A stretch of DNA of 64,000 nucleotides from a virus. The notes below the pieces were generated by a model. It worked only from the letters and a program-made list of their open reading frames with translations, had not been told where the DNA came from and made no database searches. The stretch spans positions 1 through 64,000 of the IMG/VR virus record IMGVR_UViG_3300045988_043972; one strand, written 5' to 3'. The position numbers were made by a program, and so were the translations under genes. Below, in pieces: positions 6,747 to 57,514 of the stretch (positions are counted from its first letter, which is position 1; every line of letters begins with the position of its first letter).

Positions 6747-7772
6747 TTAGGTTTTCTTCTTCTTACTTTTTGATATGTATCGCAATAGCTCTTTATGTTT
6801 AGTCATTTTACTAAATAAATTACGACCATTACAGTACTTAATCCAACCTATATAACTACATATTTTCTATTGATAAGTACTCTTGTCTAGGTTATCTTTT
6901 TTGTTCAATTTACTTACTCTTTTACAGAAATTCTTCTTAATATGTTTTCTTAATAGAGTGTGAGTATGAAATATCTTATACCCTACAAAATCTATTCCTC
7001 TATCGTCAACTTTAAATATTTGCCAGTTGTCTTTAAAGTTAATATTAAGTCTTTCTTCTAAGTACTACTTCATATCCTTAAATAACTATCTTAAATAGTC
7101 TTTGTCTCCATGAAGTATTACAATATCATCTGCGTATCTGAAATAGTATTTTATATGTTTTTCTTCTTTGATCCAGTGATCTAGATATGTTAAATATAGA
7201 TTAGCAAAGAATTGTGATAAGTAATTACCAATTGGTACTCCCTATGCAGAATCTATTATTTCATCTAATATAATTAATAATTTCTTATCTTTTACTTTTC
7301 TTCTTATTAGCTATTTTAATATATCATGATCTATTGAAGGATAAAATTTTCTGACATCTAACTTAAGACAGTATTTTGTATTGGCTTCATCTTTCAGTGC
7401 GAACTTAACATCTTTCAGAGCTTTATGTATACCACGATTTTTTATACAACTATAAGTTCCTTTAATGAAGGATGATACCCAAATAGGTTCCATAATATTC
7501 ATAATAGCATGATGTACTATTCTATCTGGATAGTATGGAAGCTTGAATATTTCTCTTTCTTTAGGTTCATATATCTTGAATATATAATATTCAGAAGTCT
7601 TATATTCACCATCTATTAATTTCTTCTATAGATCTAAAAGTAATTTTTCTCTATTCTTATCAAAATTAATTATTTCAGGTCTATGTTGTTTTTGTCTTCT
7701 AGCTCTTTTATCCGCTAGATATAAATTGTCTAAAGTTACTATTTTGTCAAATAAATTATTATATCTTTTCAT
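6747..7772 (-). CDS. DGR-type reverse transcriptase (341 aa, 6 in-frame TAG)
   Basis: Translation gives ..YEPKEREIFKLPYYPDRIVHHA.., SCIKNRGIHKA, LDVRKFYPSIDH, GVPIGNYLSQFFANLYL, YFRYADDIVIL, GIDFVGY. It lies immediately downstream of the TR. Confidence 0.9.
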
Positions 7773-7890
7773 CTGTAATCCATTACCGAGTTTTCACGAA
7801 AAAAGTTACTAACACAGTTAATTAGTATGTTATCTTTTACCAAGGGGTAAGGTCTCCCTCTACAGTCTCTTAATTTCTTTATTTGTTTAA

Positions 7891-8014
7891 TTACGGATTC
7901 AGTGTACTGACATTAGCATTAGCATTGCTGAGCTCATTGTTAGAATTAACATTGAGTAAGCCTGAATTAGCACTATTACTCGCATTACTGCTTAATGATG
8001 AGGAACAACCTATC
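7891..8014 (-). repeat. DGR template repeat (TR)
   Basis: Coding-sense TR is Asn-codon rich (AGC AGT AAT GCG AGT AAT AGT GCT AAT TCA GGC TTA CTC AAT GTT AAT TCT AAC AAT GAG ..). It aligns to VR1 and VR2 with differences only at its adenines. Confidence 0.85.
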
Positions 8015-8030
8015 TATATTTTTAATTAAA

Positions 8031-8159
8031 TTACGGTATATAGATTAACCGAGTACCGACATCAGCATAAGCAGCGCCGAGCCCACGGTGAGAATAAACA
8101 CTGAGCAAGCCCGAACCAGCACCACCACCCGCACTACCGCCTATTAATGTTAGCCTATC
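8031..8159 (-). repeat. DGR variable repeat VR1 (3' end of target gene 1)
   Basis: 8053-8143 aligns gap-free to 7904-7994. By hand I count 23 mismatches in 91 nt, all where the plus-strand TR has T (A in coding sense). Confidence 0.85.
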
Positions 8160-9272
8160 AGTTGTACTATTATTAGTCCAATTGTAGTCACACCAATAAG
8201 TTGTATTACTACCACCAAATGCTTCATCTATTGGAGGAAGTATGTCAAATGCTGCATTGTATACCAATTTCTTCTTATAACCTTCAGTAATAGCAGTACT
8301 ACATTGATAGTCATAATCAGATATATCAGTAGATCCAAATGTACTTAAGTCGGTATTTATATAAACGTCATTTTTATTAGTTTGTGCATTAAAATGCATA
8401 AGTGTGTCTATACAATTTTTCCATACATGACCAAATGGATTTTCAATACCTCTATAAGTAGGAACATTATAAGACTTCTGAGTTGCAACACCTTCTGCAT
8501 CAGTACTATTAACAGTAACAGAAGTTATACCAGTAGAGTTTCCATGTTCGTCTGTACTTCCACAAGGTATAAAACTCCATGTATCAACTCCATTTACTTT
8601 AATATTACCTGTAGTAACTCCATCTCCTAAGCCTCCTTGATGATATCCTTCTGCAGTTAATTCGGCATTGAAAGCTTTCTAACTGTTGGTACATGCATAT
8701 TCAACTAAGTAAAGCACAGTAAGTATTCTATGAGCTCTGTAAGTATACATGTTCCAATTCGTAGTACTGGAGTTATTAGCCCTAGCTCTAGATTGCATAG
8801 TAGTTCTATTAATGTTTACTACTGGAGTGATAGATCCATTGTTAATAGATTTTAACACATTGTCTACATTAGATGCTTCATATGCAGAAATATAGAACTT
8901 CTCCACATGTTCAGCTTCTGGAATATGAGGATTTGCTGGATATAAGTTCAAATATACAGTAGTATCATCTCTCATACATTTATACCAGAACTCTGGTATT
9001 TCTACCATAGTATTTAATGTCATGTCTCTATCAGTACCATCTTCATACTTGGTTCTATCTGTAGCATTAAGATATTTAACTGTTCCATCAGAAGTAATCG
9101 TGCAAGACTTCATCTTAGAATGTATAGGAAGTTCTTTATGCCAAGGCATATACCCGGTTCTAGTCAATAATGTACTCTACGGTTCTATAGGAAAGCTAAC
9201 TCCATAATAGTTAGTAAATACATTAACATCGCCAAGATATGCAGCTACAATATTTTTATCTCCTAATTTCAT
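8031..9272 (-). CDS. DGR target 1: tail-associated variable protein (413 aa, 2 TAG)
   Basis: Track ORFs 8679..9167 and 8031..8399 are in frame with ATG 9272. The C-terminus ..YNWTNNSTTDRLTLIGGSAGGGAGSGLLSVYSHRGLGAAYADVGTRLIYIP is encoded by VR1. Confidence 0.85.
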
Positions 9273-44524: not shown

Positions 44525-45309
44525 CTAACAATAAGAGCCGACTTCGAGAAATCTCAGAGCCGGCTGTCTAAACTTATTGCTGTTTTTTATCTATTTATTG
44601 AAGTCTACCATCTTGTGAATTACTTAATCTGTATCTTTTAGGATATCTTTTATATAGAGTATCTTCTTTATATATAATATAATGTATAGTTCCTTTACTG
44701 GATATATTATATTTATTCATTAATTGAGTATATGTAAAACCAGATTCTCTATCTTTTCTTATATTTTCTACTATATCTGCAGAGTATTTTCTACGTATTT
44801 GACCACAATTAATAGATATCAGTTCTTTTGGAATATCGTGTTTATTGTCTTTAATAGTTCCTATTCCTATATTATCGTAAGAATTATCATATCTATCTCC
44901 ATTCAAGTGTCTTACTACTATTCCATCTTCATAAATTTTATCACCAAACTTTTGATATGCTTGTAACCTGTGAATCATACAATGTACCTTCTTATTTTCT
45001 CTTCTAGGTCCTATTCTTATATCGAAATTGTAGTAATCTCTCTTACGATCTTTTATCCTACCTTTTACTTGTACTCCATTTCTGTTTAAAAGAATTCCAT
45101 CTTTTGTGACAGTGTAACCCTTAATAAGGGCTAATTCTTCTGGTTTTATCATACTTCTTTAATTTTTAATTGGTCGGCGTAGTAGGAGTCAAACCCACCC
45201 GGTCGGCTTCAGAGGCCACACGGTTTTAGAGACCGTCCATGCAATCGTACATCATACGCCGAAATGTGCCGGGGAATACTTATTGTCCATCCCCGTTGGA
45301 CGTCTTGTA
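44525..45309 (-). mobile_element. Probable group I-type intron carrying an HNH homing-endonuclease ORF (boundaries approximate)
   Basis: G+C-rich structured segments flank the HNH ORF. Examples: CGGCGTA..TACGCCG long-range pair and ACGGT-CTCTAAA-ACCGT upstream; CAATAAG..CTTATTG enclosing a 12-bp hairpin downstream. The insert ends in G just before TACCCAGAAGG. Confidence 0.5.
44595..45152 (-). CDS. HNH homing endonuclease, 185 aa
   Basis: ..VHCMIHRLQAYQKFG..VVRHLNGDRYDNSYDNIGIGTIKDNKHD.. is an HNH_3-like pattern, followed by a C-terminal helix-turn-helix-like region. No TAG. Confidence 0.8.
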   Translation of the reverse strand: MIKPEELALIKGYTVTKDGILLNRNGVQVKGRIKDRKRDYYNFDIRIGPRRENKKVHCMIHRLQAYQKFGDKIYEDGIVVRHLNGDRYDNSYDNIGIGTIKDNKHDIPKELISINCGQIRRKYSADIVENIRKDRESGFTYTQLMNKYNISSKGTIHYIIYKEDTLYKRYPKRYRLSNSQDGRLQ

Positions 45310-49471: not shown

Positions 49472-49503
49472 ATTCTTTTTACTTAGTTTCTAACTATAAC
49501 GTA

Positions 49504-49788
49504 TTATTTCTTATTTGGTTCTGCTTCTACTATGATATTTCCTCCATTTGAAGTACAATATGTTACAGCTCTCTGTGGGCATTGTTTACCCATAAAGCAA
49601 CAACCATCACAAGTACCTAGAGGAGAACTCTCTATATGGTATCTGTTACCTTGAATTTCTACTACTTCTCTATTCTTGATTATCTCTGCTAATTCTGGAT
49701 CGTATAGTGTCATACCTAATTGTGTATTAATGTTATATAAGTAATTTCTAGCTTCTTCTACTTGTTTTCTAGTTACTTTTGTATTCAT
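49504..49788 (-). CDS. Cys-rich hypothetical protein, 94 aa; first gene of the minus-strand arm
   Basis: Intact track ORF. Contains CDGCCFMGKQCPQRAVTYC. Confidence 0.6.
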   Translation of the reverse strand: MNTKVTRKQVEEARNYLYNINTQLGMTLYDPELAEIIKNREVVEIQGNRYHIESSPLGTCDGCCFMGKQCPQRAVTYCTSNGGNIIVEAEPNKK

Positions 49789-49921
49789 ATGTGTTTATTA
49801 AAGTAAAGGTACAATAGTAGTTAAAACTAATACTCTTACTTTAGATTACAATAACTAGTAAGTACTACTATCCCCTCTTACTCCCCTTATAACGTCTCTT
49901 ATATGTGTTTGGTTCCCATTC

Positions 49922-49942
49922 CTTTAACATTTATTAACAATG
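49922..49942. promoter_or_regulatory. TTAACA-N4-TTAACA motif copy in the divergent region
   Basis: ctttaacatttattaacaatg. A further related copy tttaacattatttaacaaaa lies at 49967-49986. Confidence 0.4.
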
Positions 49943-50442
49943 TTTAAAGCTATTTAACTACAGAAATTTAACATTATTTAACAAAAAATATTATAAAAAA
50001 TTTTGGGGGATAAAAATTTAGGGAGGGGTTGTGCGTGTGAGGAGTAGTACACCAAGTCATCCCCTCCTACCAAAAACTGGGGGAAGTCCCCGTATTGTTT
50101 TATCAAATCAAAATTACGATTATGGCATTACTATGTATGTATCCTTGGTTAGCATATGCTTTCTTTGGAGCTTATTTTGTATTCTTAATTTGCTACTTAT
50201 GGAGTATGTTGAAGACGAATTCACAGACGCATTAATTGATGCTATCTGTGGTGAGGACTTATCCTCACCATCTATCTAACAGGGGCATTTCAGCCTCTGT
50301 TAGCATCTATTGGGGATAGGTAAGTTCTACTTATGTTAGTAGGTAATAAATGAAGTTTTAGGATAGATTAACATCGAGTCCTATTACCCTTATCTATCCT
50401 CATTTGATTAGATTGAACGGTAAAAAGCTGTTGCGTACTCTT

Positions 50443-50470
50443 ACATTTATTAACATTTAATTCAATTAAC
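50443..50470 (+). promoter_or_regulatory. Related TTAACA motif directly upstream of the first plus-strand gene
   Basis: acatttattaacatttaattcaattaac ends 1 nt before ATG 50472. Confidence 0.35.
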
Positions 50471-50471
50471 T

Positions 50472-50681
50472 ATGAAACAGAGTGAAAAACTGTTGAAGTT
50501 GAAAGATGCTGGTACTATACTGATTAACCTAGGCATTCTTGTAATGTGCATTACTCCTGTTATTATGGTAGCAAGAGAAGTATATGACTTTCATGCTTGG
50601 TTGACAGTATGGAGGTGGGGAGTAGGTATAGCTTTCAGTGGGCTAGTCATCCGCATAGCAAGATTCTTGTATTTGTGGTAA
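50472..50681 (+). CDS. Small two-TM membrane protein, 69 aa
   Basis: Intact track ORF followed by a terminator. Confidence 0.6.
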   Translation: MKQSEKLLKLKDAGTILINLGILVMCITPVIMVAREVYDFHAWLTVWRWGVGIAFSGLVIRIARFLYLW

Positions 50682-50690
50682 ATTAGTCTT

Positions 50691-50718
50691 GGGCAGTCCT
50701 TAGCGGCTGCCCTTTTTA
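50691..50718 (+). terminator. Rho-independent terminator
   Basis: GGGCAG..CTGCCC followed by TTTTTATT. Confidence 0.6.
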
Positions 50719-50825
50719 TTGTATTTTATAGCTTGAGATAGAATATATAGTGTAGTTTGTATAAGCTAGCTTAAAGCTGCGCACAGGGGCAAGTCAAGCA
50801 CACCTACCAAGAATTGGGGACGCAT

Positions 50826-50929
50826 GAAGAGGAAGGAATAATGGAGAATTGAGAGCGTAGTTATTGGGGTTCGGTCATGTTCCTAGCGGTGTACTATACA
50901 TATCATCACTCTTTTCCTTCCTTTTCTTC
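50826..50929 (+). promoter_or_regulatory. Structured 5' leader of gene 50999..51715
   Basis: GAAGAGGAAGGAA (50826-50838) pairs with TTCCTTCCT-ttt-CTTC (50914-50929), 9+4 bp enclosing about 75 nt. Confidence 0.4.
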
Positions 50930-50998
50930 GCCCTTTATTTAGTCATTCAGACCAATATATAGCTTTTCGATTATTCACCAATTAAAAATACATGTATT

Positions 50999-51715
50999 AT
51001 GGCACGTTACAAATTAATGAATGTTCAAATTAAGAAAGTTGGACAAAAACCTGACGGTACAATTGACGCAACTATTAATCCAGACGGAAAACGTCGTTTT
51101 ATGACTGCATCATTAATACCAACAGCAGGTGTATGGGCAGCAGCAGCTGGCTCATTACCACCAGTGTTTGATGAAGCAATCATCAGAATGTATGAACCAT
51201 TGTTATCTCAACAGAACGGAGGAACTGCACAAGCAGACCAACCATTACCTGATGAGTTAGCATATCTCAATGGAGCATGGGCTGAATGGATTGCACCTGC
51301 ACCTTTTTACAAGAAATATCTTGTAGGAGTTGCAGCACGTAAACCAACAGCATTAGCACCACAAGGTAGACCAGCTTATCCAGCAGGTCACAGAGTTATG
51401 AATGCAGACGGTTCTGCACCAGTTATTTACACATCTATTCGTGTATTTACCATATTTGGTAGAGACGAAGACTTAGGTAATGAAATAGTTTACCGTCCAG
51501 GTTTTAGTGTAAATGAATTAGGTGTAGCTCAGTTCAGTAATTACTGTGAGTATGTACAACCACAAACTGCGCCAGTAATTGCACCACAGGATGATGTAAT
51601 GGGAGACGCAACAGTTCAGCAACCAGCACAAGCTACTGTACAACCACAAACTGTAGCTCAGCAGCAACCAGCATTCGTACAACAACCTCAGCAACCACAA
51701 GGAGCTATGGTTTAA
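50999..51715 (+). CDS. Hypothetical early protein with Gln/Pro-rich C-terminus, 238 aa
   Basis: Intact ORF, visibly G+C-richer. ..QQPAQATVQPQTVAQQQPAFVQQPQQPQ. Followed by a strong terminator. Confidence 0.75.
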   Translation: MARYKLMNVQIKKVGQKPDGTIDATINPDGKRRFMTASLIPTAGVWAAAAGSLPPVFDEAIIRMYEPLLSQQNGGTAQADQPLPDELAYLNGAWAEWIAPAPFYKKYLVGVAARKPTALAPQGRPAYPAGHRVMNADGSAPVIYTSIRVFTIFGRDEDLGNEIVYRPGFSVNELGVAQFSNYCEYVQPQTAPVIAPQDDVMGDATVQQPAQATVQPQTVAQQQPAFVQQPQQPQGAMV

Positions 51716-51880: not shown

Positions 51881-52557
51881 CAACTAATATAATTTGATAA
51901 TAAGTTTTAGGTGTAAAATGCAAGAGATTTTCTGAAAAATTAAACTAACAATTACACGGTCTGTGAAGATAGTGTAATTTCACATGTATTATTACTTTAA
52001 TGCAACCAATGAGGGCCGTGACAAGTCGGTGGACAATGCAGAGTCAAAGTAATTAATTATTATTTATCCTTAATTTATATGCACAATAAATTATTGATAT
52101 TTAATAGTTAAATAATCCACGTGGTAGAGACATAGTTAGGTTCGCTATGTGTGCAACTCTTAGTAGTAACTAATCCAAGCAAGTAAGGAGAATAACCTCA
52201 ACCAAGAGAAAGTGTGAAATGGTGCTTGACAGTCTGATACTAACTGAACAATAAGTATCATTTAAAGTAAGAGAATAGCATAGTTATTGCTGCGCATAAC
52301 TGCAAATTATGAGAGCGAATATAATGCGCTTACTTTATTCTTGATTAAATTATAATAATATAATACCTCTCACGTAACCTCCGACTACTACATGTAAAAT
52401 CCGTGCTAATAAGGTATTGTAGTAGTCTTCTCTATCAATAAATACAACCTCATCGTGGTGATAGAGTCTAGTAACATGTTAAAAACAAAACCTTCCTAGT
52501 TTGCATGTGAAGCTAATGTATTTAAATTATTTAACAGTATTAACAAATTAAATATTA
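51881..52557 (+). ncRNA. ORF-free structured block A (candidate large ncRNA; strand inferred from context)
   Basis: No track ORF on either strand. Helices: GACTACTACA/TGTAGTAGTC (52383-92/52418-27), CTCTATCA/TGATAGAG (52430-37/52459-66), AAAGTAAG/CTTACTTT (52264-71/52329-36). Confidence 0.4.
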
Positions 52558-53618: not shown

Positions 53619-54101
53619 AGAGTAATAATTAACAACAATTTATTACAGTTTTTTGAAGCATTTTGCATAATAGAAATGGTTTAAAAATTTCGACTTAATA
53701 ACTAGTCAGTTCGTGAGAATAGACTAGTCTTCAGAAGATGACAAGCCTGTGGGGCGTAAATAGATATGTCTTGTCAAAAGAATTAGGCCTACATAATTCA
53801 ATTGAGCCCAAGGTGTAGGAACATATCTATGATCGTGCGGACGTTAAAATCAGGTGAGTTCTAAGATTTAGTTTGACAGCTATTTCTGTATGTACTCTGG
53901 AGTAATCCTAAAACATATGAGGGTTTAAATTAACATAGTAATATGTGTGAAGGTGATTTCTTTAATAACAGATGTACAATAGAGCGCTATTGTTTTATAG
54001 TATTAGTCGCGAACCCGTAGCACTGCGGTAAATTATTCTGTATATAGTGCTGTATACAGACGTCATCAATTTTACTAACAATTAAAACTTAAGCTTATGT
54101 A
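53619..54101 (+). ncRNA. ORF-free structured block B (candidate ncRNA)
   Basis: No track ORF. Helices: ACTAGTC/GACTAGT (53701-07/53722-28); ATAGATATGT/ACATATCTAT (53760-69/53821-30) enclosing CCTACA/TGTAGG; ACAATAG-agcg-CTATTGT near 53976-93. Confidence 0.4.
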
Positions 54102-54834: not shown

Positions 54835-54933
54835 ATGGGAAAGAATAAGGAGAAAGAAGTAAAAACTAAGACGGAATATAAAAAACGTCCTAAGCATAAG
54901 AAAATGGAACCTTATAATCGTAAAAAGGCATGA
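54835..54933 (+). CDS. Possible 32-aa Lys-rich micro-protein
   Basis: MGKNKEKEVKTKTEYKKRPKHKKMEPYNRKKA. Its TGA overlaps the next ATG (ATGA). Confidence 0.35.
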   Translation: MGKNKEKEVKTKTEYKKRPKHKKMEPYNRKKA

Positions 54934-55337
54934 TTGAATTAAGTAAAGAAAAACCGTATGAAGATGCATGCAAATTGCTAGGTCTTCGTCCTGTAGCTAA
55001 TTATAAAAGCTACAAATTAACAGATGAAACTAGGAACTTCATCAAGTTAGAAACTATTGCAAAAGCTTTGAATGAAGGCTGGAAACCTAAAGTAACAGAT
55101 CCAAAAGAAGTAAGATATTACATATGGGGCTGGAACTATACAGATAACCAAAAACCTTCGGGCTTGCTCTTTGTTGGTTCTGGCGATGGGCTCGGCCTTG
55201 CTGATGCTGATGTCGGTACTTCCTTGGAATTCAAAGACAGAGATACAGCAAAAGAATTTGCAAGAATATGTAAACCCATGATTGTCAAACATTTATTTGG
55301 TCGAGATGATCATGAAAACTTCAAATTCAATTTCTAA
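54930..55337 (+). CDS. DGR target 2: small cytoplasmic-looking variable protein, 135 aa
   Basis: Track ORF. ..RYYIWGWNYTDNQKPSGLLFVGSGDGLGLADADVGTSLEF.. parallels the VR1-encoded end of 8031..9272. No signal peptide or TM segment is visible. Confidence 0.8.
   Translation: MIELSKEKPYEDACKLLGLRPVANYKSYKLTDETRNFIKLETIAKALNEGWKPKVTDPKEVRYYIWGWNYTDNQKPSGLLFVGSGDGLGLADADVGTSLEFKDRDTAKEFARICKPMIVKHLFGRDDHENFKFNF
55157..55219 (+). repeat. DGR variable repeat VR2 (remote, opposite strand to TR)
   Basis: Gap-free alignment to the reverse complement of 7904-7966. By hand I count 17 mismatches in 63 nt, all at TR adenines; every non-A position is identical. Confidence 0.85.
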
Positions 55338-55464: not shown

Positions 55465-55501
55465 TTAAATTGTTAGTATGGTGGATTCCAATCAACCCGA
55501 A

Positions 55502-55647
55502 AGAACTGTAAATATACCAAAACCCTAATACATATTATTATGTAATGGCTATTCAACGGCAATCTGTAAATCTACAGATAAAGGGAGAGAAGGATAGGGG
55601 TTATCTGTAGAATAAGAGATAGGAATATACAGAACAGTTCTTTTTTT
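55502..55647 (+). ncRNA. Small structured RNA or terminator-capped element
   Basis: AGAACTGT/ACAGTTCT (55502-09/55634-41) closes the element and is followed by T7. An inner 11-bp hairpin TCTACAGATAA/TTATCTGTAGA (55571-81/55601-11) has a purine-rich loop. Confidence 0.4.
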
Positions 55648-56448: not shown

Positions 56449-56820
56449 TTCTCCGCGCATAGTCCAGGTATAGTGTTTTAGCAGTAGAAAATACTGACTA
56501 TATAACCTAACTAGAGAAAGTAGCTAATAGGTGGTGATGACATTTTATGTGCTAAGTACCAGAAGATGCAGCTCATGCGTGAATTAACACGCATACAACA
56601 AGTGTAAGGCGTAGAAATACGACCGATGCCAGAGTAGGACAATATGACAACGTGCCACTGATCATGTGCCTAAGATCGTGAGGATGTATTAATAAATTGC
56701 GCAATATATAAATACAGATTCTATACTCAATGAGTATATTATGCAATAGCATTCTTATGATATCAAATCGGCATATTGGAATAGTGCGATGCTAGACATC
56801 ATGCCGTATAGAGGCTGAAA
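56449..56820 (+). ncRNA. ORF-free structured block C, 5' part
   Basis: No credible ORF, and it contains short inverted repeats. Shares the 11-mer CCAGAGTAGGA with block D (near 63124). Confidence 0.35.
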
Positions 56821-57199
56821 GGTATTCTATACTTCCAAGACAAGTTATCAAGGCATTAGAAAATAATTTAAAAAAGACCAAAGACTATGTAGGTTTGGTC
56901 GCCTACATAGTCACAATTGACTGTTAGGTCTATTTAAGCCCGAGCAAGACGAGCTTTCGCAGGCTCCACCTCCACTAATAAAGAAATATTAAAAAGGGGG
57001 TGTATATGTATTGATTGGCGGAAACTAAGTAGAATAGGTCAATAAGCAGATAACTGGCAATACAAGTTATGTAACAGACTATACACGTTTAGTAGCGTAA
57101 GATAGTCTAACGGCTAAGCTAATGTCGTAGAAAGCTGGAGGTATATCAGGCTAGATCAGACGTAAGGGCTGTTGGAGGGTTCGATTCCCTCTAATACCA
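56821..57199 (+). ncRNA. About 380-nt RNA whose ends form a tRNA-like acceptor/T-arm domain (tmRNA-like topology, not a canonical tRNA or tmRNA)
   Basis: T-arm GAGGG-TTCGATT-CCCTC (57175-91). TAATACC (57192-98) pairs with GGTATTC (56821-27), 6 of 7. TATACTTCCA (56828-37) pairs with TGGAGGTATA (57136-45), 10 bp including one G-U. Confidence 0.5.
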
Positions 57200-57235
57200 C
57201 AATTAAATTAAGTTTAATCAATAAATTAATTTGAA

Positions 57236-57514
57236 ATGGGATTAATGAACTTCATTAGGCAGAACTTACCAGAATCATGGGAGAAAGCTGCAACAGAACT
57301 GAAAATGAAGACAGAGTTAATAACTCGTCTACATGCAAATGTTCCCAGAATTTATAAGAATAAATATCATTATAAAGAGGGAATGAACTACATTCGTGGT
57401 GTATTTAGAGCATCTTGTGATATCATCTACTTAGTAGAAGCAACTGATATCGACAAGGAAAAATGGGAGTTATTGAATAACAAAATTAAAGAATACGAAT
57501 ATCAATGCGCGTAG
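57236..57514 (+). CDS. Hypothetical protein, 92 aa (stops at TAG)
   Basis: Track ORF. The stop is TAG 57512-57514. Confidence 0.6.
   Translation: MGLMNFIRQNLPESWEKAATELKMKTELITRLHANVPRIYKNKYHYKEGMNYIRGVFRASCDIIYLVEATDIDKEKWELLNNKIKEYEYQCA

Follow-up and report, generated by a model that had tools for sequence, protein, structure and literature searches.

A second, remote variable repeat of a Buchavirus diversity-generating retroelement, located in a small gene of the phrog_11581 family

The cassette and its two variable repeats

The DNA analysed here, positions 1 to 64,000 of the IMG/VR record IMGVR_UViG_3300045988_043972 and hereafter called the window, hosts a diversity-generating retroelement (DGR). 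Its single cassette, made of a template repeat (TR) and a reverse transcriptase (RT) gene, very probably rewrites two variable repeats (VRs). One, VR1, belongs to a tail-protein gene adjacent to the cassette; the other, VR2, is far from it, within the gene of a 135-aa protein of the phrog_11581 family. By sequence the window is assigned to a crAss-like phage (Crassvirales, Suoliviridae, Loutivirinae, genus Buchavirus), and its 64 kb are 92-95% identical to the 'uncultured phage' genomes cr60_1, cr109_1 and cr113_1. The features involved, with the evidence for each, are the following.

6747..7772, minus strand: DGR RT gene, 341 aa, with six in-frame TAG codons (PF00078, 5.4e-17; phrog_1423, 4e-121)
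7766..7854, minus strand: RT-17 structured RNA motif (Rfam RF03020), separating the TR from the RT start codon (Rfam gathering-threshold match)
7904..7993, minus strand: TR, non-coding, flanked by target gene 1 and the RT gene (sequence comparison)
8053..8142, minus strand: VR1, cassette-adjacent, at the 3' end of the tail-protein gene (A-only mismatches to the TR)
8031..9272, minus strand: target gene 1, encoding a 413-aa tail protein, with two in-frame TAG codons read as sense (phrog_5302, tail protein, 9.5e-73)
54930..55337, plus strand: target gene 2, encoding the 135-aa phrog_11581 member, with a TAA stop and no in-frame TAG (open reading frame (ORF); PHROG match)
55157..55219, plus strand: VR2, remote second variable repeat of the DGR, within the 135-aa gene at codons 76-97 (TR alignment, pattern search)

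VR2 aligns without gaps over 63 nt to the reverse complement of 7904-7966. The original prediction had placed a second DGR repeat here, in a small gene about 47 kb from the TR and on the opposite strand, with 17 mismatches counted by hand, all at adenines. Software comparison lowers the count to 16 and confirms the rule, as 16/16 mismatches fall on a template A. Four of the 20 template adenines are unchanged, the non-A positions are all identical (43/43), and the hypergeometric probability that all 16 mismatches hit the 20 A sites of the 63 is 1.3e-11. The matching 63-nt core of VR1 (8053-8115, minus strand) carries 14 mismatches to the TR, 14/14 at template A. Between VR1 and VR2 there are 11 differences, every one at a template-A site, again as had been predicted. 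A pattern having N at the A sites is found in three copies in the 64-kb window, corresponding to TR, VR1 and VR2, with 0 expected from shuffles, and no further VR copy was detected in the window even when 3 mismatches were allowed.

The template is matched over its whole length by VR1, and over its 3' 63 nt alone (7904-7966) by VR2. On the 5' side the TR/VR1 homology goes on for some 26 nt more, up to about 7993 in the TR and about 8142 in VR1, and differences in this tract are A-to-G only. VR2 homology ends at 55157, and the repeat hence corresponds to the 3' two-thirds of the template. In the VR2 frame the TR features seven AAY codons (AAT or AAC). VR2 is internal to its ORF rather than at the extreme 3' end: 38 residues come after it, including a predicted helix (104-123) followed by a strand, and the same internal position recurs throughout the alignment of the phrog_11581 family. 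At the 3' side the homology ends with ...GTCGGTAC; the sequences flanking VR1 and VR2 beyond this point are AT-rich and unrelated to each other. About 10 nt past VR1 lies an 8-bp AT-rich inverted repeat (ATCTATAT ... ATATAGAT, 18-nt loop; window 8000-8043, minus strand), which is kept in cr60_1, cr52_1, cr56_1 and cr109_1, has a folding energy no better than shuffles, and could be either a terminator or a homing-related structure.

The RT contains the motifs IGNYLSQ at residue 181 and YADD at residue 213, in agreement with the (I/L)GxxxSQ and YxDD signatures of DGR-clade enzymes. The RT-17 match is marginal, its 40.8 bits lying just above the cutoff of 40.4 (E 2e-4); the motif is probably the 3' structured part of the template RNA. 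The cr60_1 orthologue of the tail target is annotated as 'tail protein; similar to sulfatase, major tropism determinant', and the neighbours of the cassette are a holin and a tail-tip protein.

Variation of VR2 in populations and sister genomes

A protein search over about 5.8 billion proteins returned 969 homologues of the 135-aa protein, the best 120 of which are themselves 135-aa proteins, 93-97% identical. Contigs bearing the gene are in many cases short and break off no more than a few hundred bases from it, which is what assembly failure at hypervariable loci would produce. Since an exact-flank DNA search of IMG/VR yielded two further VR2 copies only, population statistics were computed at the protein level, on 119 near-identical 135-aa homologues. 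Column entropy shows that variation is concentrated at residues 81, 83, 85, 86, 90, 92 and 94, at about 3 bits each, and these seven hypervariable residues are exactly those specified by AAT or AAC in the template. Identity among the homologues is 98.7% outside VR2 and 14.6% at the seven AAY codons, where 117 distinct combinations were found in the 119 proteins. Almost all residues at the seven sites (830/833) are among the 15 amino acids that can arise from AAY; K, E, Q, M and W make up 28% of the remaining protein. Codons including a single template A (87, 89, 96 and 97) exhibit low-frequency variation of the expected kind, the unmutated template state Ser96 included. Occasional variation at the final two adenines of the template, in codons 96 and 97, means that replacement extends up to the 3' limit of the homology. 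Hypervariability confined to template-A codons in natural populations supports the view that VR2 is actively rewritten.

Sister genomes add a second line of evidence. The TR of cr60_1 is identical to that of the window, and the TRs of cr52_1 (B. copri) and cr56_1 (B. faecalis) diverge from it at 5 and 8 non-A positions, respectively. In both of the latter the orthologous small gene, which the original prediction had proposed to look for in related genomes, is present with a divergent VR2 of its own. Compared to the TR of the same genome, these VR2s have 0 non-A mismatches and 12 (cr52_1) or 15 (cr56_1) A-site mismatches, and the non-A changes of each template are found in both VRs of that genome. 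In these sister species VR2 thus evolves in concert with the template of its own genome.

Loss of the cassette has occurred in two genomes. In cr109_1 the RT and the TR have been lost and the holin abuts the tail gene; both VRs have been kept, with 5 (VR1) and 2 (VR2) changes at skeleton, i.e. non-A, positions. In cr113_1 the cassette is absent, and a 94-nt deletion takes out VR2 and frameshifts the small gene. The sequences flanking this deletion (about 2240-2250 of the cr113_1 locus), GGTAT and GGTAC, are near-identical.

These data bear on the possibility of a relic, in which VR2 would stem from a single copying of the tail VR or TR into a small gene and would no longer be rewritten. Such an origin would suit a repeat that is 47 kb from the cassette and has no 3' flank in common with VR1 nor a supported hairpin, and one haplotype, P0033, is indeed stable over many runs. 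A relic, however, would gather non-A substitutions, and these were seen only in the RT-less cr109_1. Nor would it exhibit 117 haplotypes, confined to AAY codons, among 119 proteins 98.7% identical elsewhere, or follow the lineage-specific non-A changes of its own TR as in cr52_1 and cr56_1. We find the relic hypothesis hardly credible; population, sister-species and loss-pattern evidence all back the remote repeat as originally proposed.

Both VRs of cr60_1 carry the same T-to-C change at repeat position 35 relative to the cr60_1 TR, which may reflect either a TR polymorphism in that population or a non-adenine RT error shared by the two repeats. The shared change could also point to homologous recombination or gene conversion with VR1, in place of direct retrohoming of cDNA, as the process keeping VR2 template-like, and the 63 nt of near-identity between the VRs could support such exchanges. 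Against this, the two VRs differ from each other at many A sites in every genome examined (11 sites in the window), which makes indirect conversion unlikely. Moreover, VR2 is limited to the 3' 63 nt, though the homology of VR1 and TR goes on for about 26 nt, and the RT-adjacent members of the phrog_11581 family described below have no tail VR nearby that could act as donor. Conversion is thus a very improbable source of VR2, and direct rewriting from the TR is retained in what follows.

The 135-aa protein and its family

The 135-aa protein matches phrog_11581 with an E value of 3.6e-12 over residues 8-73, i.e. in its N-terminal half. This PHROG family has neither name nor annotation. No match to the protein was found in Pfam (even at E 10), NCBIfam, PADLOC or PDB sequences; searches of the same four collections with the protein and 63 family members gave nothing meaningful, and PDB profile searches were empty. 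A scan of bacterial genomes with the single protein returned one uninformative match, in a metagenome-assembled genome. An exhaustive search of representatives at 50% identity detected 252 clusters, mostly of 110-200-aa proteins, sharing a core of the type KTxEDAC..LGI / ALNEGW.P.W / KYYPWF / variable loop / VGSRLxFK..ELA.YAG.QF..LY. All the distant relatives assayed (59/59) match phrog_11581, down to 6e-52, and a local profile built from them recognizes the window ORF at 1.9e-31. The local family profile found no second phrog_11581 paralogue in the window. The ORF had been correctly delimited in the original prediction (54930..55337, 135 aa), where the lack of signal peptide and transmembrane segment was also remarked; neither was seen in the protein or in any of 144 family members. 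N-terminal extensions, where present in the family, are hydrophilic and helical.

A single-sequence AlphaFold2 model was unusable (pLDDT, the per-residue confidence, 41.6) and was replaced by one based on the family alignment (pLDDT 84.8, pTM 0.80). The latter consists of three helices and short strands, and VR2 makes up a long loop (pLDDT 56-73) between residues 70 and 100, the sole part of low confidence. Foldseek comparison of the model to the PDB gave a best E value of 2.2, with TM scores below 0.25, the VR loop itself being poorly modelled, and comparison to BFVD retrieved uncharacterised phage proteins only. The C-type-lectin-like fold, which the original prediction had suggested looking for in a predicted structure, was accordingly not confirmed. 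A scaffold common to the small protein and the tail target had also been noticed, and comparison of profiles supports it weakly: the family profile aligns to the Mtd-like tail target over its last ~70 residues with E 8e-4 and a probability of 24% when Buchavirus sequences are removed. Of the 59 distant members, 6 match the tail-target family phrog_5302, and some family members host a segment of the type 'WGG...GxGL...VGxRL', which resembles lectin VRs. A reduced or rearranged lectin-like module is possible on these sequence similarities.

Scanning IMG/VR with the family profile identified 501 relatives, and 79 loci were examined. In 49 of the 79 a DGR RT, 50-62% identical to the window RT, is located 211-1101 nt downstream, on the same strand. 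For 37 of them, a TR of 65-86 nt whose end is about 105 nt short of the RT could be matched to the variable segment of the small gene, and 518 of the 525 mismatches in these TR/VR pairs fall on a template A. The VR-equivalent loop of 139 distant representatives contains 1.9% K, E, Q, M and W, versus 25.9% elsewhere, a composition expected of AAY-derived sequences. As far as these loci tell, the family consists of dedicated DGR targets in many gut phages, usually placed directly upstream of their own TR and RT.

The organization of the loci varies. Many have a tandem array of two or three paralogues, followed downstream by one TR and one RT (e.g. L013 5232-6061, L015, L045, L078). In 30 of the 79 the family member has no RT closer than 10 kb, and is either a remote target or a copy that is not diversified. 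Two loci were annotated with PHROG, and there the cassette is found among genes for anti-repressor (Ant), RecT, exonuclease, HNH and resolvase proteins, not among tail genes. The small RT-adjacent gene of other phages was also considered as an Avd-like accessory gene, and this was rejected because those genes carry the adenine-mismatched VR.

Genomic context, mechanism and comparison with known systems

The two targets of the window belong to differently coded arms. Minus-strand genes between about 0.1 and 44.6 kb are broken at TAG by the standard code, and turn into long ORFs when TAG is read as sense. A suppressor tRNA is encoded at their side:

45171..45261, minus strand: suppressor tRNA with anticodon CTA, reading TAG (ARAGORN; minus-strand late ORFs are long only with TAG as sense)

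As the RT and the tail target both carry in-frame TAG codons, their translation requires this tRNA, whereas that of the 135-aa target does not. The plus-strand block starting at 50999 includes 17 ORFs and 2614 codons with 0 in-frame TAG, and TAG serves as stop twice, in line with the standard-code plus-strand neighbourhood described in the original prediction. The cr60_1 counterpart of this block extends as far as the DNA polymerase gene. Among the plus-strand neighbours a sigma factor is the sole protein recognised by PHROG annotation, the others being small ORFs. The 135-aa gene is thus located, about 4 kb from the strand switch, in what its position and code identify as the standard-code, replication-side (non-structural) arm; we infer from codon usage and position that the arm is early. 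The sign of the GC skew is reversed at about 50 kb of the window, and the strand switch (about 49500-51000) coincides with the minimum of cumulative GC skew. Both VRs have consequently the same orientation relative to local transcription, and also to fork movement if the origin lies there.

Taken as a whole, the data are very probably explained by one DGR cassette rewriting both VR1 in the tail gene and the remote VR2 in the 135-aa phrog_11581 protein. The transcript including TR and RT-17 would be copied by the RT with adenine-specific errors, and the mutagenised cDNA would replace two homologous tracts, the cassette-adjacent VR1 and VR2, 47 kb off and on the other strand. Replacement at VR2 would use the 63-nt homology alone, corresponding to the 3' part of the TR. 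The predicted outcome is a hypervariable stretch of 17 residues (81-97), with seven fully randomised positions, forming a putative surface loop between the helical N-terminal part and the C-terminal helix. Since the RT needs TAG suppression, mutagenesis would be confined to late infection; new alleles would be inherited by the progeny and expressed in the next infection. The protein would then expose seven randomised residues on one loop and bind a variable intracellular ligand.

A number of observations weigh against this explanation, or against parts of it. Neither a GC-rich homing element 3' of the VRs nor a statistically supported hairpin 3' of VR2 was found; folding of the VR2 flank does not exceed that of shuffled sequences (z = -1.06), compared with a 6-bp stem in cr52_1 (z -2.0) and the 8-bp AT stem at VR1. 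The unrelated 3' flanks of VR1 and VR2 likewise offer no signal by which the second site would be recognised. No ORF lies between the tail-gene stop (8031) and the TR, nor between TR and RT, and no Avd gene was found next to the cassette, the whole window not having been scanned with an Avd profile; Avd-less cassettes have been reported for most Zeta crAss-like phages (PMC12386605). Ongoing diversification within a single population is deduced from variation between assemblies, and haplotype P0033 of VR2 is unchanged on 24 Logan contigs from several runs (SRR136684xx, SRR91615xx), from which it follows that VR2 turnover is not constant. A C-type lectin fold was not recognisable in the 135-aa target by Foldseek, Pfam or PDB sequence searches. 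Lastly, 'early' and 'intracellular' are terms derived from the position of the gene, its codon usage and the missing signal peptide.

As to function, the protein may be an intracellular antibody-like binder, whose specificity is varied to track a variable factor of the host or of rival phages. We give this proposal slightly less than an even chance. An intracellular binder engaged in phage-host conflict is plausible, and its ligand might be a cytoplasmic defence factor of the host. The more general idea that phrog_11581 is a widespread family of such small binders, diversified by DGRs on a non-classical scaffold (a helical core and a randomised internal loop) and devoted to counter-defence or phage-phage conflict rather than to adsorption, is rather doubtful.

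The same mechanism could act on a protein working outside the cytoplasm, either associated with the virion or released as an accessory adhesin that assists host recognition. Its variable segment is encoded by the template that also serves the tail protein, the family profile weakly aligns to the C-terminal ~70 residues of the tail target, 6/59 members match phrog_5302, and most of the phage DGR targets known so far bind receptors (PMC8144416, PMC12636319). An adhesin is nevertheless unlikely, because signal peptides and transmembrane segments are not visible in 144 family members, no evident virion-attachment domain is found in the 135-aa protein, and the gene lies in the standard-code non-structural arm beside small ORFs and a sigma factor. 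In other phages, too, the family is found among recombination and regulation genes or methyltransferases.

We deem it equally unlikely that the protein, while intracellular, acts in phage-phage conflict or self-regulation (superinfection exclusion, a variable sensor or decoy) instead of inhibiting host defence. The non-structural context would be the same, and in temperate phages family members adjoin anti-repressor and repressor-type genes. Nothing specific speaks against this role; there is no PADLOC match, domain, partner or phenotype.

A remote, non-structural second target is already known in Quimbyvirus, and the present system is not of a new kind. Benler et al. 2021 (PMC8008677) described in Quimbyvirus a second DGR target distal to the structural module and on the opposite strand, amid methyltransferases, a nuclease and a tRNA ligase. 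As in Buchavirus, a single TR/RT cassette adjacent to tail genes serves both the tail protein and a far, opposite-strand, non-structural target. The novelty implied by the original prediction was therefore overstated, the more so as the protein family is widespread. The likeness is drawn from the published description and from the sequence of Bacteroides phage BI-TP1, not from that of Quimbyvirus itself. BI-TP1, a Quimbyvirus-like phage, fits the description: it has a fragmented RT and an Mtd_N tail protein, and its target is surrounded by methyltransferases and a tRNA ligase. This target, gp84, belongs to phrog_11581, is remote from the tail-adjacent cassette and has a 112-nt VR in which 14/14 mismatches are at A. 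In contrast, Buchavirus belongs to another order (Crassvirales), is of lytic type and has TAG-recoded late genes. Its protein is shorter (135 versus 194 aa) and so is its VR (63 versus 112 nt), and in place of a methyltransferase island its target has small ORFs, a sigma factor and ribozyme-associated RNAs around it. The Quimbyvirus target is named a C-type lectin protein in PMC8008677; that fold was not confirmed here for the phrog_11581 family.

Other systems are similar in part. The experimental prototype, the mtd-avd-TR-brt element of Bordetella phage BPP-1, shares with the window the adenine-specific transfer from TR to VR, an RT of the IGxxxSQ type and a non-coding TR upstream of the RT, and the window tail target is Mtd-like by annotation. 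In BPP-1 a C-type lectin tail fibre bears the one VR, at its C-terminus, and the element includes an Avd gene as well as a hairpin and a GC-rich homing element; the window phage has two VRs, VR2 being internal, and an adjacent Avd, a GC-rich element and a supported hairpin were not found in it. Two-target DGRs are found in the Bacuni phages of Bacteroides uniformis (PMC8143477), in which one of the two targets lies in a distant part of the genome, and in the 'tentaclin' phages (PMC10743442). Their targets are DUF1566/Fib_succ_major or C-lectin plus Ig adhesin-like proteins and are thought to be adhesive, unlike the second target of the window, which is small and has no signal peptide or recognisable domain. 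DGRs of crAss-like phages also have their RT cassette, in many cases devoid of Avd, next to a gene for a tail or tail-fibre protein, and RT genes of the Zeta group are amber-suppressed; only tail-protein targets are described for them (LMMB, PMC7290462; Epsilon, PMC11054128; Zeta, PMC12386605; review, PMC10136315). No report of a second, non-structural target was found in the literature on Suoliviridae and Buchavirus DGRs, and a target of this kind is apparently unreported in crAss-like phages.

Phage DGRs are usually seen as host-range devices that vary tail proteins, and Buchavirus, a common crAss-like genus of the human gut, spends the same template on a small protein of the non-structural arm. 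What is added to the known cases is that a crAss-like genus performs remote double targeting, and that the target belongs to a large, unannotated family of recurrent DGR targets. With about 130 aa and seven randomised positions, the protein is a compact candidate for studying intracellular hypervariation in phages, and possibly a natural scaffold for engineered binders. If the antibody-like binder proposal is true, a lytic-type crAss-like phage couples tail and intracellular hypervariation to one template. As the RT itself needs TAG read-through, remote targets of this kind are missed in DGR surveys based on RT-centred windows and standard-code gene calling.

Structured RNAs are present in the plus-strand arm. 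In the cr60_1 record (NC_055891.1 12092-12567) a tmRNA and an overlapping tRNA-Leu are annotated; in the equivalent tract of the window (about 56890-57330, plus strand) ARAGORN and Rfam detected neither, the nearest Rfam match being RAGATH-20, at 56576-56677. Rfam-level matches in plus-strand intergenic gaps, all on the plus strand, correspond to RAGATH-7 (52051-52260), the Hatchet self-cleaving ribozyme (53727-53855), RAGATH-9 (55488-55644) and the RAGATH-20 just mentioned. Their presence suggests that ribozymes or structured RNAs process a long early transcript. The RAGATH-9 match is located 150 nt downstream of the 135-aa gene.

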